Assembly: GCA_002421745.1 (NCBI GenBank)
Contig: DISC01000006.1
Span: 87,610 to 151,609 of the forward strand
DNA length: 64,000 nucleotides
Source: Patescibacteria group bacterium UBA6220
Lineage (GTDB): Bacteria; Patescibacteriota; Minisyncoccia; Minisyncoccales; Minisyncoccaceae
Reading direction: 5' to 3'
In this document: in pieces, positions 5,835 to 61,902 of the stretch
Layout of the letters: each line of letters starts with the position of its first letter
Numbering within the stretch: the stretch's first letter is position 1
Made by a program: the position numbers and the translations under genes
The notes under the pieces: model-generated
Told to the model about the DNA's origin: nothing
Database searches by the model: none
What the model saw: only the letters and a program-made list of their open reading frames with translations

Positions 5835-8537
5835 TTATATATTTTTTTGTTGAATTTTACTATAAAGTTTATTTATTTTTCTTCGATAAAAAAATTTACG
5901 AATTTCTTCTACTAAAACAATTGAAAAAGCAATTGGAATAATCATCAACCATTCTGAAAGAGAAAGTGAAGTAACGTGTAAAATCTTTTGTAAAAAAGGA
6001 GTATAAAGTGCAATAAACTGTAAAAATATAACAATCACAGTAGCTCCAACTAAAAACTTATTAGAGAAAGGATTCATTTTAAATATTGATTCGCTTTCTG
6101 ACCTACAATTCCAAGCATTGAACCATTGAAACGCCGCAAGCGTAGTAAGTGATATTGTCCACGCTTTAACAATATCAACTTCAAAATACCCCCTAAAAAG
6201 ATACAAGGTTCCAATAGCCATTGGTAAAGCCATAAACAAAATCCTTTGACTCATAAATCCATCAATAATCCATTTTTTAGGACGCTCAAATTTTCCCTGC
6301 ATTAATCCTTTTTCTTGCGGCTCCATAGCAAGAGCGACATCAAGAAATCCGTCTGTCACAAAATTAAGCCAAATAATTTGTGCCGCAAGAAGAGGCAAGG
6401 GATATCCTAAAACAAGTGCACCAATAATAACTAAAATCTCTCCTATGTTTGTGGAAAAAAGATAAAGAATAATTTTTTTAATTGTTTTATAAATCCCCCT
6501 ACCTTCTTCAGCAGCAGAAACTATACTTGCAAAATTATCATCCAAAAGTATTATATCAGCAGCTTCTTTCGCCACCTCTGTTCCAATTAGTCCCATAGCT
6601 ACGCCCAAATCAGCCCCAACCAATGATGGCGCATCATTTACTCCGTCTCCCGTCATAGCGACAATCTCCCCGCGTTTACGATAAGCTTGGATAATACGCA
6701 ATTTATGATTGGGTGTAACTCTGGCAAAAACCGTAACGTGAGTAAGTTTTTTTTCTAATTCCCTATCTGACATAGAATCAATCTCTCCTCCAGTAAGAAC
6801 ATCGTCTCCTTTGTGCCAAATATCAGCTTCCCTTGCAATTGCCTGAGCCGTCAAACTATGATCTCCAGTAATCATAACCACTTTCATATCTGCCGCCACT
6901 ACCCTTTGTATTGCCTCCTTAACTTCCGGACGAAGAGCATCATTCATACCAAAAAAACCAACAAAAGTAAGCAAAGGCATTTTATTAGAATCAATGGTTT
7001 TTTCAGTATTCGGATTAATAGCATAAGCCACAACTCTAAAACCATTTTGCGCAAAATCATGAAAGGCTGCCTCCAGCTTCTTTTTACTTTCCTTATTCAA
7101 AGCACTGATTTTGTCCTTGAACCAAACATTACTACAAAGTTCAAGTATTTTTTCTGGAGCGCCAATAACAGTAAGAAAATTTTTACCCTCAACAACTCTA
7201 ATCGTAGCATGATATTTTTTTTGATAATCAAAAGGTAATTCAAAAATTTTTGGTGACTCTTGTTTTGTCACGTCATGCCTAAATCCAATTTTTTCTGAAA
7301 AAACCTGTATCGCTGCTTCAGTAGGATCTCCTGCAATTTTCCAAGCATTAGATTCTTCTAAGAAAAAAAGTCTAGCGTCAGCACAAAATTCACCAACTCT
7401 TCCACTAAAAAGAAGTTCCGGATAATTTAAAGGATCGACAACCTTATCATTAAAAATAATTTCACCTTTTGGCTCGTATCCATTGCCTGTAATATCAAAA
7501 GTTTTACCACCAACATATACGCGCTGAATTAACATTTCATTTTTTGTAAGTGTTCCTGTTTTATCTACTGCTATAATTTTTGTTTGCCCTAAAGCCTCAA
7601 TTGATTGCAATCTCTTTACTAAAACGTTACGCTTTGCCATTCTTTGAACCCCAGTAGCTAAAACCAAAGTCATAACTATGGGAAGCCCTTCAGGAATAAT
7701 AGAAACTGAAACAGCCACAGCTAAAGTAAACATTTCTTCAAGAGATTTGCCGGAAACAACACCTAAAAGAATCAACAAAATACTGATAATAATTACCGCC
7801 ACAACAATAAGACGCGAAAAATAACGAATCGTAGTTTTTAAAGGAATTTCAGTATTAATAGAAGTTATTTTTTGAGCAATTTTTCCAATTTCTGTTGTGA
7901 TTCCTGTAGCAACAACAATTGCGACACCATTTCCACTTAGAATATGCGTACCCTTGAATATCATATTCCTTTGATTCGACGCAGATAAATTATCTACCAC
8001 TTTATCGATTTTAATTACAGGATCAGACTCACCCGTAAGACTGGCCTCATCCACTTTAAGCGTGTTAGAAAAAATAATCCTTGCATCAGCTGGAACTTTC
8101 TCTCCCTCTTGCAAAACAATAATATCACCAGGAACTATTTCAACATCTGAAATTACTAATTCTTTTCCGTCTCGCAAAACAGTAGCCGAAGTCTCCGCAA
8201 GTCTTTTTAATGCAAGTAACGCATTTTGAGCTTTGCCTTCTTGAGCTGTTCCAACAACTGCATTAAAAAGAAGTATAGTAAAAATAATCGAAGCATCAAC
8301 AAGCTCTCCCATCGCAAAAACAATGCCCACCGCAATAAAAAGCACATAAATTAAAGGACTCTTAAACTGTCGTAAAAAAATAACAAAAAGACTATCCGTC
8401 TTGCTTTCAGGAAGTTTGTTGGGTCCATATTCTTTAAAACGATTTTTCACTTCTTCTTTTGTTAGGCCATCTGTCCGAGAATGAAGAACATCGATAACAT
8501 CGCTAGTCTTTTTTGTATGCCATAAAATCTGCTGCAT
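5835..8537 (-). CDS. Cation-transporting P-type ATPase (type II, Ca2+/cation-like)
   Basis: 900 aa. Phosphorylation motif DKTGTLT, ITGDH, hinge TGDGVNDAP, N-terminal cation-ATPase-N-like LTKEEVKNRFKEYGPNKL, about 10 TM helices. Confidence 0.9.
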   Translation of the reverse strand: MQQILWHTKKTSDVIDVLHSRTDGLTKEEVKNRFKEYGPNKLPESKTDSLFVIFLRQFKSPLIYVLFIAVGIVFAMGELVDASIIFTILLFNAVVGTAQEGKAQNALLALKRLAETSATVLRDGKELVISDVEIVPGDIIVLQEGEKVPADARIIFSNTLKVDEASLTGESDPVIKIDKVVDNLSASNQRNMIFKGTHILSGNGVAIVVATGITTEIGKIAQKITSINTEIPLKTTIRYFSRLIVVAVIIISILLILLGVVSGKSLEEMFTLAVAVSVSIIPEGLPIVMTLVLATGVQRMAKRNVLVKRLQSIEALGQTKIIAVDKTGTLTKNEMLIQRVYVGGKTFDITGNGYEPKGEIIFNDKVVDPLNYPELLFSGRVGEFCADARLFFLEESNAWKIAGDPTEAAIQVFSEKIGFRHDVTKQESPKIFELPFDYQKKYHATIRVVEGKNFLTVIGAPEKILELCSNVWFKDKISALNKESKKKLEAAFHDFAQNGFRVVAYAINPNTEKTIDSNKMPLLTFVGFFGMNDALRPEVKEAIQRVVAADMKVVMITGDHSLTAQAIAREADIWHKGDDVLTGGEIDSMSDRELEKKLTHVTVFARVTPNHKLRIIQAYRKRGEIVAMTGDGVNDAPSLVGADLGVAMGLIGTEVAKEAADIILLDDNFASIVSAAEEGRGIYKTIKKIILYLFSTNIGEILVIIGALVLGYPLPLLAAQIIWLNFVTDGFLDVALAMEPQEKGLMQGKFERPKKWIIDGFMSQRILFMALPMAIGTLYLFRGYFEVDIVKAWTISLTTLAAFQWFNAWNCRSESESIFKMNPFSNKFLVGATVIVIFLQFIALYTPFLQKILHVTSLSLSEWLMIIPIAFSIVLVEEIRKFFYRRKINKLYSKIQQKNI

Positions 8538-42594: not shown

Positions 42595-44046
42595 TTACTG
42601 ACGCGTAAGAGTAATATTAACTACTGGTTGTGTATTATTAGCTCCTGGAGTGTCCGTGACAACCTCTACCCCATCTGCCCCTATATATCTTGCGTAATTA
42701 TTCGTAAGCTGGAAAGTTATTCCCTCAGCAGGAATATTATTAGGGCTTCCGAAATCAAGCTCTACGGTTTGCAATCTGCTACTATATGCATCGACTTTTC
42801 CGCCAATATCTTTGGTTATTGTATTGTTGTTTGCATTTTTAATGATGGATGAGGCGTTTGGTGAAATTGTAAATCTTGCCTCTTCTGGCTCAATATCATT
42901 CTCGAGTGCGGAAACTTTAAATCTTACTAGCATGGCTTGGCCATCGCTACTTACTTTTTGTTCTATAGAAGAAGGCCCGTCCACAGAAATCATTAAAATA
43001 CCTGGAGTTTTAATGTATACTGATTTTTCTGTTTGTACGCCATTCGCAATGCATTTTAACTTAAATGTAATTGGCGAGCTAATAACGACGTCCTTATTTC
43101 CGTCGGAGGCGACGACTTGGTCATTCGCTGTGCATTGTAATGCTTCTCCAGTTGCAACTGTAGCCGTCCAAGCTAATTTTACAGTGCTGTTAGGCTTTAC
43201 TATAAAAGAATCTACCTCATTACCGTTAGTTTTAATAGAGATTGCTGGAATTGCGGATACAACTTTCACAGCGGTTGTTTTACTCATCGAAGATCCGTCG
43301 GTTGATCCGCATATAAGAGTATATGAATAATCTCCCGCTTTCGTATATTGAAGCTTTTCTGATCCGTTTGCATTTTTAACTCCACTCCAATTTCCTGAGG
43401 CTACGCAGTTTGTAATATTTTGCGAATGCCATGATAGGTTTGCATACGTAGGACCGTTAAGTACTACTGTTGGCACTTGGTCGAAATAAAGACTGGCAGA
43501 GGAGGTAGCACTTGTTGCTGGTGTATCCACTGTTTCAGAAGTTGAGGATTGGGTTGTTTGCTGTGGCTGTTGAGTATTTTGAGTTTGCTGTTGGATTACT
43601 GACTGTGATTGCTGGCTATTTTGTTTTTGGCTGTTTAATAGTTTTTGTAATAAAGCTATTAAATTTTCCCTAGAAATATCACCGGTTGTCGATGATGTTG
43701 TAGCTATCGGAGTAGTTGTTCCAGTTTCGGTAGTAGCCTGTTGATTAGAAGATTGTAGATTTTTAGCTAAAATATCGTTAACTTTTTGCCTTGAAAGACT
43801 TCCAAAGTAGCCTGTTGATGGCAAGCTATTTGCAGTTTGAAACTTTTTAACAGCTGACAATGTAAGAGAATAATAATTACCAGTAGCTTCTCCAGTTAAA
43901 TATCCCTGATCAATTAGGAATTCTTGTAATTCCTTAACCTGTGAATCGTTTTGTAAACCATAGGAAAGATTTTTATCTATAGAGGCACTTACAAACATAA
44001 TGGGTGCAAGCAAGAATAACGATAAGATAATATTTATTTTTTTCAT
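42595..44046 (-). CDS. Secreted peptidoglycan-binding-domain protein with Q-rich linker and Ig-like repeats
   Basis: Signal peptide from the ATG at 44046 (MKKINIILSLFLLAPIMFVSA). PG_binding_1-like VKELQEFLIDQGYL...AVKKFQ. Confidence 0.65.
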   Translation of the reverse strand: MKKINIILSLFLLAPIMFVSASIDKNLSYGLQNDSQVKELQEFLIDQGYLTGEATGNYYSLTLSAVKKFQTANSLPSTGYFGSLSRQKVNDILAKNLQSSNQQATTETGTTTPIATTSSTTGDISRENLIALLQKLLNSQKQNSQQSQSVIQQQTQNTQQPQQTTQSSTSETVDTPATSATSSASLYFDQVPTVVLNGPTYANLSWHSQNITNCVASGNWSGVKNANGSEKLQYTKAGDYSYTLICGSTDGSSMSKTTAVKVVSAIPAISIKTNGNEVDSFIVKPNSTVKLAWTATVATGEALQCTANDQVVASDGNKDVVISSPITFKLKCIANGVQTEKSVYIKTPGILMISVDGPSSIEQKVSSDGQAMLVRFKVSALENDIEPEEARFTISPNASSIIKNANNNTITKDIGGKVDAYSSRLQTVELDFGSPNNIPAEGITFQLTNNYARYIGADGVEVVTDTPGANNTQPVVNITLTRQ

Positions 44047-44388
44047 ATTTTTAAAATAGTTAATAAATTGACAGATTATGTCGACAAATAATCCTTCCTG
44101 TGGCGTTTTATATACAAAAAGCCCACCACAGGTAGTGACCGAAGCCACTCATACCGGTTTCCCGATATGGCGATCAAGCGACCCCATGATGGGTTCTTTA
44201 TTCTTGATCGACTTTTGACCATGCCCTTGAAATTCAAAGGTTTAGGCCTGCTATTAAATTGTGATTACATAATAGCTCAAAAGCTAAAAATTGTGTAGTC
44301 TTTCAGTCTCCAGTTTGTCTACATCTAGGGTCTGGACTTCCTTGCCATATTGCGACATCTGTATAGGTAAGAGAATAAAAGACAAAAT

Positions 44389-59397: not shown

Positions 59398-59474
59398 ATA
59401 TTAGATAAAAAGTCCCGCTTTCGCGATTCGCTTAAGCGGGTACCGGCGAAAGAATTGCTTCCGCATAAATCTTT

Positions 59475-59759
59475 TTATATATCTTTAATATCGAAATCTT
59501 TTCTATTCTTAAACTCTTCTTGCTTACCCTCATTCCACTGAGAGACAGGCCTTAAATAGCCAACTACTCGAGAATAAACCTCTGTATTCTGATAATTTTT
59601 TAAGCTTTTATCTTTTTCATAACACTCGTTACATTTAAAAATAGATGTATCTTCTCCTCCAGGCAAATCGTATTTCAATAATTGACCATTCACTATTTCA
59701 TTAAGCTCATTAATTTTTATTTCGCAGCCACAATCGTGGCAAAAAAATTTTGGATTCAT
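59475..59759 (-). CDS. Stand-alone NrdD C-terminal-like mini-protein (Zn ribbon plus glycyl-radical motif)
   Basis: CHDCG...CNEC, then EVYSRVVGYLRPVSQWNEGKQEEFKNRKDF. This is almost identical to the NrdD C-terminus EVYSRVVGYLRPVSQWNEGKQQEFKERKEF. Confidence 0.7.
   Translation of the reverse strand: MNPKFFCHDCGCEIKINELNEIVNGQLLKYDLPGGEDTSIFKCNECYEKDKSLKNYQNTEVYSRVVGYLRPVSQWNEGKQEEFKNRKDFDIKDI
59509..59582. repeat. 74-nt near-identical duplicate of the nrdD 3' end (copy in the mini-gene)
   Basis: Matches 59828-59901. A 52-nt core differs at one position. Confidence 0.85.
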
Positions 59760-59772
59760 ATTTTTATTAAAA

Positions 59773-61902
59773 CTAATTTTTAGGTGTTTTAGCTAAAGCT
59801 GCTTTAATTTTAAATTCTTTTCTTTCTTTAAACTCTTGTTGTTTGCCTTCATTCCACTGAGAGACAGGTCTTAAATAGCCAACTACTCGAGAATAAACCT
59901 CACAAGGCTGTTCAATGGTACATTTAGGACAAGTAAAGTGTTTACCAGCAATATAACCATGAGTCGGACAAATTGAAAAAGTTGGAGTTAAGGTAATATA
60001 TGGTAAACGATTATTTTCAAAAACTTTTTTAACTAAACTTTTAACGGTTTCGATATCTGAGATTTCTTCACCAACAAAAATATGTTCTACCGTACCTCCT
60101 GTATATTTACACTGTAAATCATCTTGCAGTTTTACCTCCTCAAAAATATCATCTGTATAATTTACCGGCAATTGAGTTGAGTTAGTATAATAAGGTATTT
60201 TTTTTGTTCCTGAAGTAATAATTTCTGGATAAAGCTTGCGATCTTTTTGTGCCAAACGATAAGAAGTTGATTCTGCTGGCGTAGCTTCTAGATTATATAA
60301 ACTACCTGTCTCTTTTTGATATGCAACCAATCTTTCTCTCATAAAATCCATTAATTCTAAAGCTAGCGTTCTTCCTTTTTTAGATCCAATATCTTCTCCG
60401 ATAAAATTAAGCAAAGCCTCGTTCATTCCAGATAAACCAATTGTAGAAAAATGATTGGCAAAATATTGACCTTTAGATTTTTTAACACTCTCCAAATAAT
60501 ACCTTGAATAAGGATACAATCCTTTGGCAGTAAAATCTTCAATGGTTTTTCTTTTTATTTCCAAACTTTCTTTAGCTATATCCATAATCTTGGTTAATCT
60601 TTCTAAGAATTCTTTTTTGGTTTTAGATAAATAACCAATTCTCGGCAAATTGATTGTTACCACGCCGATACTACCAGTTAAAGATCCAGAACCAAACAAA
60701 GCACCACCACCACGATTACTTAATTCATTTAAGTCGAGTCTCAAGCGACAACACATTGAACGAGCGTCTTCGGGTTTCATTTCCGAATTTATATAATTAG
60801 CAAAATAATTAATACCATATTTAGCCGAAGCTTCAAATAATGGATCCAGAGCTGGGTCTTCCCAAGGAAAATCTTTGGTAATATTAATAGTTGGAATTGG
60901 GAAAGAAAATGGTCTACCACTTCTATCTCCTTTAATCATACCTGTATAAAAAGCCTTAACCAACATTTTCATTTCTTCTGCGAATTCACCATAATTTTCT
61001 TTTTGTGGAACACCACCAATAATAACGGGCTGATTAGCAAAAACCGCTGATGGTTTTAAGTCTAATGTAATATTGGTAAATGGGCATTGAAATCCAACCC
61101 TGGTAGGCACAGACATATTGTATAAAAATTCTTGAATAGCCTGTTCAACTTGAGCATAACTTAAGTTGTCGTATCGAATAAAAGGAGCTAACAATGTATC
61201 AAAATTGGAAAAAGCCACAGCTCCGGCTGCTTCACCCTGCAAAGTATACATAAAATTAACAATTTGACCCAAAGCTGATCTAAAATGCTTTGGAGCCGAA
61301 GATTCAACCTTACCCATCACCCCCCCAAAACCTCTCATTAATAAGTCATACAAATCCCAGCCTACACAATAACAAGCCAAAGTATCCAAATTGTGCAAAT
61401 GAATATCTCCAGATTGATTGGCTTCTCTAACTTCTTTGGGGTAAACCTTATTTAACCAATATTTTTTTACAATATAACTAACTCCATAGTGATTTAAACC
61501 TTGAAGTGAAAAAGTCATGTTGGAGTTTTCTTGCACCTCCCAATCCATTTTATCCAAATAATCATCAACTCTATCTACGGCTTCTTCGCTGATTGCATTA
61601 GCTTCTCTGATTTTTCTTCTTTGTTCACGATAAAGAATAAACGCTTTGGCTGGATCAACCTCACCTTCTAAAATTAAAACCTCTTCAATGATATCCTGTA
61701 TTTGTTCCACGTTCGGAACTTCTCCTTGTCTAAATCTTCTTCCCAAAATATCAATCACTTTTTCAGAAATCATTTTGGTTTTCTCTCCATTACCAGCCTT
61801 GGTGGCAGTAATAGCCTTAAAAACAGCATTAAGAATCTTATCGGGATTAAATTCAACGATATCATTGTTTCTCTTTTTAACTTTTAGAATTTTATTGGTC
61901 AT
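59773..61902 (-). CDS. nrdD: Class III anaerobic ribonucleoside-triphosphate reductase
   Basis: N-terminal ATP-cone, active-site SMCCRL, C-terminal Zn site (CPTHG...CPKC) and glycyl-radical motif SRVVGY. Confidence 0.9.
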   Translation of the reverse strand: MTNKILKVKKRNNDIVEFNPDKILNAVFKAITATKAGNGEKTKMISEKVIDILGRRFRQGEVPNVEQIQDIIEEVLILEGEVDPAKAFILYREQRRKIREANAISEEAVDRVDDYLDKMDWEVQENSNMTFSLQGLNHYGVSYIVKKYWLNKVYPKEVREANQSGDIHLHNLDTLACYCVGWDLYDLLMRGFGGVMGKVESSAPKHFRSALGQIVNFMYTLQGEAAGAVAFSNFDTLLAPFIRYDNLSYAQVEQAIQEFLYNMSVPTRVGFQCPFTNITLDLKPSAVFANQPVIIGGVPQKENYGEFAEEMKMLVKAFYTGMIKGDRSGRPFSFPIPTINITKDFPWEDPALDPLFEASAKYGINYFANYINSEMKPEDARSMCCRLRLDLNELSNRGGGALFGSGSLTGSIGVVTINLPRIGYLSKTKKEFLERLTKIMDIAKESLEIKRKTIEDFTAKGLYPYSRYYLESVKKSKGQYFANHFSTIGLSGMNEALLNFIGEDIGSKKGRTLALELMDFMRERLVAYQKETGSLYNLEATPAESTSYRLAQKDRKLYPEIITSGTKKIPYYTNSTQLPVNYTDDIFEEVKLQDDLQCKYTGGTVEHIFVGEEISDIETVKSLVKKVFENNRLPYITLTPTFSICPTHGYIAGKHFTCPKCTIEQPCEVYSRVVGYLRPVSQWNEGKQQEFKERKEFKIKAALAKTPKN
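59828..59901. repeat. 74-nt repeat, copy in the nrdD 3' end
   Basis: See 59509-59582. Confidence 0.85.

Follow-up and report, generated by a model that had tools for sequence, protein, structure and literature searches.

Why would a bacterium whose class III ribonucleotide reductase (RNR), NrdD, is intact carry directly beside it a second, small gene for a zinc ribbon and the radical loop of the same enzyme? This question is raised by a 64,000-nucleotide (nt) stretch of DNA from Patescibacteria group bacterium UBA6220 (GenBank assembly GCA_002421745.1, contig DISC01000006.1, positions 87,610 to 151,609 of the forward strand), which is called the window here; all coordinates are those of the window. 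An original prediction, made from the letters alone, had pointed to an open reading frame (ORF) of 94 amino acids (aa) between nrdD and nrdG and had suggested that its product serves NrdD in the way that GrcA/YfiD serves pyruvate formate-lyase (PFL). All the evidence on this mini-protein presented here is computational. The reading that we favor, with a probability of roughly 0.65, is that the mini-protein is an autonomous, trans-acting glycyl-radical domain for class III RNR. The proposed GrcA/YfiD-like role gained support, at the level of sequence, from conservation of the family, from NrdD genes that lack their own loop, from stress operons, from viral copies and from gene conversion of the tail.

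A stand-alone zinc-ribbon and glycyl-radical protein between nrdD and nrdG

The presence between nrdD and nrdG of a 94-aa ORF with a CxxC...CxxC ribbon and an NrdD-type radical motif was confirmed by the ORF itself and by Pfam and NCBIfam. The mini-gene lies between the two genes, and all three are on the minus strand, as follows.

61902..59773, minus strand: nrdD, 709 aa, ATP-cone and complete NRDD barrel
59802..59901, minus strand: 3' end of nrdD with its own radical loop, copy 2 of a direct repeat and of the putative converted tract
59759..59475, minus strand: mini-gene, 94 aa plus stop, stand-alone zinc-ribbon and glycyl-radical domain
59586..59759, minus strand: ribbon half of the mini-gene, residues 1-58, two Cys knuckles with a beta-hairpin insert between them
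59483..59582, minus strand: radical tail of the mini-gene, copy 1 of the putative converted tract, starting at the E60 codon
59397..58684, minus strand: nrdG, radical-SAM activase (Pfam Radical_SAM, 2e-21, and Fer4_12)

The nrdD product matched Pfam ATP-cone (1.6e-17) and NRDD (6.2e-192) and scored 1031 bits against NCBIfam NF006126 (cut-off, 548), as expected of a full-length class III RNR. It has its own metal site (C645-x2-H648...C658-x2-C661) and its own radical glycine, Gly675 (codon 59878-59880), in an intact loop. The nrdG product scored 214 bits against TIGR02495 NrdG2 (cut-off, 131) and presumably generates the radical in NrdD as well as in the mini-protein. The mini-gene starts 13 nt past the nrdD stop codon.

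In the mini-protein (MNPKFFCHDCGCEIKINELNEIVNGQLLKYDLPGGEDTSIFKCNECYEKDKSLKNYQNTEVYSRVVGYLRPVSQWNEGKQEEFKNRKDFDIKDI), the order of motifs is CxxC...CxxC followed by EVYSRVVGYLRPVSQWNEGKQ, with CHDC, 32 residues, CNEC, 13 residues and EVYSRVVGYLRPVSQWNEGKQEEFKNRKDF. Knuckle 1 of the ribbon consists of C7/C10 (59730-59741) and knuckle 2 of C43/C46 (59622-59633), and the radical glycine, Gly67 (codon 59559-59561), stands in the fingerprint RVVGY, which is of the RVxG[FWY] type. Only positions 511-562 of the 562 positions of the Pfam NRDD profile (PF13597) were matched (E 5.7e-13); at E<=1, the Pfam scan returned in addition only a sub-threshold HypA match and gave no match to Gly_radical PF01228. 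The best NCBIfam model, TIGR02487, reached 40.5 bits against a cut-off of 326, and no NCBIfam model claims the protein. The mini-protein is thus not an NrdD catalytic subunit, since it has no full barrel and stays below the family cut-offs. It does have what characterizes the NrdD C-terminal domain, namely, a metal-binding Cys cluster directly upstream of the glycine loop, and it is identical to NrdD over 21 residues around the radical glycine. A PDB sequence search with the mini-protein gave only a marginal match (E ~0.9), to residues 613-645 in the tail of Thermotoga maritima NrdD.

The fold was predicted with AlphaFold2 (AF2) from an 89-sequence alignment (mean pLDDT, 80), which superseded an earlier run with 29 sequences in which the loop was disordered (pLDDT, 65). 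The model places ribbon strands at residues 13-16, 25-31 and 37-43 (pLDDT, 69-84) and a short helix at 44-49, followed by a hairpin (60-63/68-71), whose turn holds Gly67, and by a helix at 72-84. Expression as a readthrough or frameshift fusion with nrdD was considered and rejected, since the mini-gene is in another frame, has its own ATG and is unlinked to nrdD in many genomes.

The mini-genes form a family under selection

Related loci were surveyed for the ORF, as proposed with the original prediction, and it proved to be conserved rather than absent or disrupted. A word-indexed search returned 651 homologues, nearly all of them stand-alone. The best 120 of these 651 are all 76-132 aa long; the named ones among them bear the labels Paceibacterota, Pacebacteria, Minisyncoccales, Wolfebacteria or Patescibacteria, and a single record is labeled Pacearchaeota. 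One homologue, MNSN_06970, is found in the cultured Minisyncoccus archaeiphilus, with the same synteny as in the window, and close relatives share the gene order FtsA-FtsZ-NrdD-mini-NrdG-rhomboid-ComEC. Synteny and the closest homologues also assign the window to a CPR (Candidate Phyla Radiation) bacterium of the Paceibacterota/Minisyncoccales. Homologues are named "anaerobic ribonucleoside-triphosphate reductase" or "hypothetical protein" in public records. When 1.84 billion cluster representatives (50% identity) were searched exhaustively with a profile, 484 clusters scored at E<=1e-10; the best 150 were almost all 42-159 aa long and matched the whole profile.

C7, C10, C43 and C46 are invariant in both the 29- and the 89-sequence alignments, as are Gly67 and most of the loop among the 89 sequences. 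No frequent frameshifts or stops were seen in the mini-gene among relatives. Synonymous sites between genomes are mostly saturated; where the synonymous rate (dS) was measurable, the ratio of nonsynonymous to synonymous rates (dN/dS) of the ribbon half was 0.05-0.37, so that this check, too, came out in favor of a functional ORF. A pseudogene reading was rejected on conservation. By these measures, the mini-proteins are a real gene family under selection and not a one-off duplication.

Some members carry additions. A C-terminal tail with a Cys pair (..ATCC, ..GCC, ..ACCC, ..CGC, ..GGECC) was found in 18 of 220 fetched minis, including L008, L014, L015, L016, L021, L026, L031, L023 and L029 as well as P0064, P0080 and P0104 (L and P numbers are our own handles). 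The tail occurs in many minis outside the clade of the window and is absent from the adjacent NrdD and from the window mini, and in L028 the truncated NrdD itself ends in ..VCC. It is reminiscent of the cysteines that serve as a C-terminal redox shuttle in class I/II reductases. A longer mini (P0073, 132 aa, in L090:1-8399) has an additional Cys-rich extension at its N terminus; it is surrounded by many small ORFs without Pfam matches, an SNF2 helicase and a MerR gene, which gives the region the look of a phage or mobile element.

Natural NrdD genes without their own radical loop

We then surveyed the context of the mini-gene at 80 loci from GTDB species representatives and distinguished three context types. 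Type A is the arrangement of the window, where the mini and NrdG come after an NrdD that is intact, loop included; ten surveyed loci are of this type (L001, L008, L014-L016, L019, L021, L026, L031 and L045). In type B, which was found in seven genomes (L017, L023, L024, L025, L028, L029 and L033, all from the set of metagenome-assembled genomes JBAYLE01, LBXA01, CAIMIV01, JBAZXY01, CAYOIM01, JBFHIG01 and DUUL01), NrdD keeps the barrel and its own CxxH...CxxC ribbon and then either stops or runs into a decayed relic of the loop. Examples of such ends are ...TEVFLKVGEEELREKQEKIIKK and ...SSTVYLKVVMAD, each directly before the stop codon, and examples of relics are TEVFLKVGEEE..., TVYLKVVMAD and AEGFLVAGEDE.... 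An intact mini comes next in each case, and nrdG follows it in L017, L023, L029 and L033, where the contigs are long enough.

Apart from the loop, type B enzymes look complete: 17 intact NrdDs agree in 211 alignment columns, and type B enzymes keep 191-195 of these; nearly all losses fall at 668-694, which is the radical loop. In a neighbor-joining tree of the NrdD barrel, they branch at about four different points among the type A enzymes. Type B loci thus appear to encode working reductases for which the sole possible radical glycine at the locus is on the mini-protein, and they would represent a natural version of the complementation of a loop-less NrdD. Oxygen cleaves NrdD at the glycyl radical, as is established for the E. 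coli and T4 enzymes, and type B NrdDs resemble the remains of such a cleavage. Sister lineages L038 and L055 have an NrdD and no mini-gene at all.

Other irregular nrdD genes were noticed as well. In L070:2953-5108 (Woesearchaeota), L078:2973-5282 (Leptospiraceae) and L054, NrdD stops after the ribbon and the loop is on a short ORF without a ribbon of its own; these simple splits could be genuine genes in two pieces or the result of frameshift errors, and L054 is frameshift-like. The nrdD of L045 is broken into ORFs of 635 aa and 119 aa. NrdD ORFs of 1020-2032 aa, compared with the usual ~700 aa, were found in L083:919-3999 and in L044, L053, L065, L138, L153 and L156, and probably carry inteins or other insertions.

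Unlinked copies in oxidative-stress operons

The third context, type C, comprises unlinked minis, which have neither NrdD nor NrdG within 5 kb and come from CPR bacteria as well as from Desulfobacterales, Syntrophales and other Thermodesulfobacteriota. In L007, a gene for a FUR-family regulator is followed by the mini, a rubrerythrin (226 bits, rubrerythrin equivalog) and a desulfoferrodoxin. The mini precedes a rubrerythrin in L002 and a hemerythrin in L003; in L009, L085 and L086, the order is FUR, mini, (ferritin-like protein) and Fe/Mn superoxide dismutase (SOD), and in L004 and L006 it is FUR and mini. The regulators scored 92-100 bits with PerR models and 47-54 bits with Fur models, all below the equivalog cut-offs of 180-200 bits. 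No consistent neighbors were found for the Desulfobacterota type C copies. The CPR context would tie the mini-protein to oxidative stress, a link that concerns the unlinked copies and not the window copy. L085 and L086 also have a reverse transcriptase gene (RVT_1) and a bAvd-like gene, likely a diversity-generating retroelement, which follow their PerR-like/mini/SOD operon at a distance of about 2.5 kb on the downstream side (6863-7937 in both).

Viral copies

Mini-genes are also found in viruses. The archaeal virus ANMV-1 (KP703175.1) has a 144-aa "nrdD" that proved to be a mini, complete with ribbon and loop; its 38.5 kb contain no other gene annotated as nrdD or nrdG, and the ANMV-1 paper only labels the mini-gene "nrdD". 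In IMG/VR, 28 of the best 80 loci have a ribbon-type mini without NrdD or NrdG within 6 kb, and some of these minis are flanked by genes for tail sheath, tape-measure, tail tube, terminase or major head proteins.

Another ~35 viral loci from IMG/VR (L122-L172) have loop-only ORFs of 41-90 aa, e.g., MKTRCEVYSRVVGYLRPVDQWNEGKSEEYKQRKEFKL, with examples at L134:916-1041, L145:5974-6099 and L148:1839-1982. These ORFs lack a zinc ribbon, no NrdD core lies within 6 kb of them, and they may be still more minimal stand-alone radical loops, or fragments. On one viral contig, a radical-SAM gene (phrog_9298, L110:9270-10127) lies ~3 kb downstream of a ribbon-type mini; it has no phmmer match with the window NrdG and could encode a divergent activase that moves together with the mini.

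The radical tail is matched to nrdD by gene conversion

The original prediction had described a 74-nt block, nearly identical between the mini-gene and the nrdD 3' end, with one mismatch in a 52-nt core. This was confirmed, with 69/74 identical positions in the block and 51/52 in the core (59531-59582 versus 59850-59901; longest exact run, 32 nt). A repeat search extended the similarity to 59483-59582 versus 59802-59901, with 88/100 identical nt and the copies 319 nt apart. This is far beyond chance, since all other repeats in the same 3.4 kb are <=29 nt long and AT-rich. Over the 33 codons from EVYSR on, 23 are identical between the mini-gene and nrdD, 6 differ synonymously and 4 nonsynonymously. 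Directly upstream of the E codon, similarity at the DNA level falls to chance, and the earlier view of the N-terminal half as a diverged copy of the NrdD ribbon had to be given up.

The origin of this similarity was examined over 28 codons (84 nt) from EVYSR on in six Paceibacterota genomes. Within a genome, the tails of the mini-gene and of nrdD differ at 1, 1, 1, 8, 11 and 11 of the 84 nt, whereas orthologous mini tails of different genomes are 9-25 nt apart (mean, 18). Among all 720 permutations, the true pairing of mini and NrdD tails has the smallest total distance. The identity starts sharply at the E codon in 6/6 genomes and extends for ~85-95 nt, with similarity at chance level upstream. 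The ribbon half evolves like an ordinary orthologue and therefore speaks for recurrent conversion and not for a recent duplication. We thus favor the view that, in the clade of the window, the mini tail has been repeatedly gene-converted against the adjacent nrdD tail. Recent duplication, the other origin that had been proposed, was rejected: only the tail is homogenized, whereas the ribbon halves are orthologues in genomes between which dS is saturated. In the Moranbacteria-like clade (L015, L016 and L019), conversion appears to be rare or old, since minis and NrdD tails each cluster among themselves.

A proposed spare radical domain and its alternatives

How might such a protein work? The mini-gene would be co-expressed with nrdD and nrdG: the genes run in the same direction, with a 13-nt gap after nrdD, and are probably co-transcribed. 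Its product is predicted to fold into a four-cysteine zinc ribbon, a beta-hairpin with Gly67 and a helix. NrdG would abstract a hydrogen from Gly67 as from Gly675 and thereby install the radical. The radical hairpin would then enter an NrdD barrel that lacks a working loop and restore catalysis in trans; we infer this insertion because natural NrdD genes have lost only their own loop. Since the window NrdD keeps its own loop, use as a spare part is most likely here: following the logic of GrcA/YfiD, the mini-protein would step in once NrdD has been cut by oxygen at its glycyl radical. Use after oxygen damage is suggested by the unlinked family members, which sit in oxidative-stress operons. 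Recurrent conversion with the nrdD 3' end would, to judge from sequence, keep the spare loop matched to the resident loop.

Several points weigh against this proposal. The NrdD of the window has its own intact loop, so that a repair role is not forced over a dosage or regulatory role. The ribbon of the mini-protein would have to find room beside the ribbon that NrdD retains. The window mini-gene has no recognizable Shine-Dalgarno sequence and no neighboring oxidative-stress genes. The split and stress-operon copies belong to other subclades, are about 45-60% identical to the window mini and bear on it by extrapolation; moreover, the loss of the loop in type B was read at the surveyed locus, and a second intact nrdD may exist elsewhere in these genomes. 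Finally, a Foldseek search of the AF2 model against the PDB gave nothing at E<=0.001, and its weak top matches, to zinc-ribbon ribosomal proteins, were uninformative. The latter result is unsurprising for a loop of 35 residues, which normally lies inside an enzyme of 700 residues.

The main rival is a constitutive second subunit or dosage device: even beside an NrdD with its own loop, the mini-protein would serve a two-piece reductase as its main radical carrier, or as an equal one, and would raise the radical-loaded fraction without being a repair part. The position of the mini-gene inside the nrdD-nrdG operon in the window and close relatives, 1-13 nt after nrdD, suggests translational coupling and thus constant co-expression; the mini is the only radical carrier at the locus in the seven type B genomes, and conversion could keep the NrdD tail intact-looking without selection. 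However, the unlinked copies under PerR-like regulators, together with rubrerythrin, SOD and desulfoferrodoxin, argue for stress-specific use, most NrdDs, including those of L038 and L055, work without a mini-gene, and viral minis occur without nrdD. We therefore consider a constitutive subunit unlikely.

Quite improbable, in our view, is a decoy or buffer that competes for NrdG, or stores or quenches radicals, and so tunes activation without ever entering the NrdD active site. NrdG should bind the mini-protein, since the loop is identical to that of NrdD over 21 residues, and the mini-protein carries a ribbon of the kind that is needed for NrdD activation, as Logan et al. reportedly found in 2003. 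Nevertheless, a decoy fails to explain why loop-less NrdDs keep 191-195 of 211 invariant core residues, it would have no need for a conversion-matched helix after the loop, and it fits the split genomes poorly. That the mini-gene is left over from a partial tandem duplication at the nrdD 3' end and is now decaying without a function, as the 100-nt direct repeat 319 nt from its source might suggest, is hardly credible for an ORF that is intact in hundreds of diverged genomes with saturated synonymous sites, whose four Cys and Gly are invariant and whose ribbon half is without a counterpart in nrdD DNA.

Returning to the spare radical domain, we see about even odds that stand-alone NrdD-type radical domains are a widespread, unrecognized class of trans-acting proteins. 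With their help, single-reductase anaerobes, such as CPR bacteria, Desulfobacterota and anaerobic methanotrophic (ANME) archaea, would restart DNA-precursor synthesis after oxygen and viruses would sustain the reductase of their host; in several lineages, the domain would be the sole radical carrier, the outcome being a two-chain class III reductase. If our proposal holds, the mini-protein would be the first spare-part radical protein outside PFL and a new type of viral auxiliary gene product, and it would add a two-chain architecture to class III RNR. It would also explain how genome-reduced anaerobes that rely on one oxygen-labile reductase survive transient oxygen, and, at about 90 aa, it would be a minimal substrate with which to study target recognition and activation by NrdG. 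The candidate is concrete, has a natural genetic control in the NrdDs that lack only the loop and is testable with three small proteins.

Other features of the operon and the window

The mini-gene and nrdG are separated by a spacer of 77 nt, which contains one further feature.

59400..59470, minus strand: GC-rich double hairpin inside the mini-gene/nrdG spacer, RNA fold -25.7 kcal/mol, z -2.88

Its stem 2 (CCCGCUU...AAGCGGG) is followed by a U-run, so that the double hairpin looks like a terminator or attenuator. A consensus terminator scan called no site at 59400..59470, and an Rfam search of the operon, including the hairpin, gave no match. The hairpin is not conserved, as the mini-gene of L083 abuts nrdG without a spacer. 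It is GC-rich inside a region of 32% GC, which is also the G+C content of the window, and could set the ratio of NrdD/mini to NrdG. Promoter and terminator scans gave counts at the level of shuffled sequence, and a search for NrdR boxes found none near nrdD and a single match in the window, at chance level. Elsewhere in the window, a LOOT RNA motif (Rfam RF03000) was found at 44134-44248 on the minus strand (77 bits; gathering score, 46). It begins in the first ~15 nt of a 517-aa ORF (42595..44148) and extends upstream of this ORF.

Comparison with known systems

The original prediction knew of no characterized equivalent of GrcA for NrdD. A June 2026 review of glycyl radical enzymes agrees: spare-part proteins are known only for formate lyases (PFL), and the existence of spare parts for other glycyl radical enzymes is given as undetermined. 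Our own literature searches for a described NrdD spare part found none either. GrcA is activated by the activase of its parent enzyme and replaces the oxygen-cleaved loop (same review; PMC8683613), and T4 Y06I is a phage homologue of GrcA (June 2026 review). Like GrcA/YfiD/Y06I, the mini-protein is a small stand-alone protein that copies only the C-terminal radical loop of a large enzyme: it is 94 aa long, its homologues are almost all <160 aa, and Gly67 of the RVxG[FWY] motif is invariant in 89 sequences. Occurrence in viruses is also shared, with T4 Y06I on the side of PFL and ANMV-1 and the tailed viruses of IMG/VR on the side of the mini-protein. In contrast to GrcA, the mini-protein derives from NrdD and not from PFL, as reflected in the absence of a PF01228 match, and has a four-Cys zinc ribbon where GrcA has no ribbon and a disordered N terminus; moreover, the window mini-gene has the enzyme gene on one side and the activase gene on the other, and gene conversion homogenizes it with the enzyme gene. 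The mini-protein may thus be GrcA-like in its way of working, by analogy, but its NrdD origin, its ribbon and the lack of a PF01228 match place it outside the GrcA family by sequence.

With the C-terminal domain of NrdD itself, as in T4 NrdD and T. maritima NrdD (4COI/4U3E), the mini-protein shares the loop motif and a metal-binding ribbon directly upstream. It differs in being free-standing, and the ribbons are not built alike: the mini-protein has CxxC-x32-CxxC, a hairpin insert that is conserved and 13 residues between ribbon and loop, whereas the adjacent NrdD has CxxH-x9-CxxC and a linker of 6 residues. A split reductase is known in class II, where NrdJa/NrdJb of Pseudomonas aeruginosa have the C-terminal accessory region, including a zinc finger, on a separate chain (PMC9669993). 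The loop-less NrdD of type B together with its mini is comparable to this arrangement, although NrdJa/NrdJb belong to another RNR class and have no glycyl radical. Furthermore, NrdJb is an obligate piece of its enzyme, while the window mini duplicates a loop that NrdD still has.

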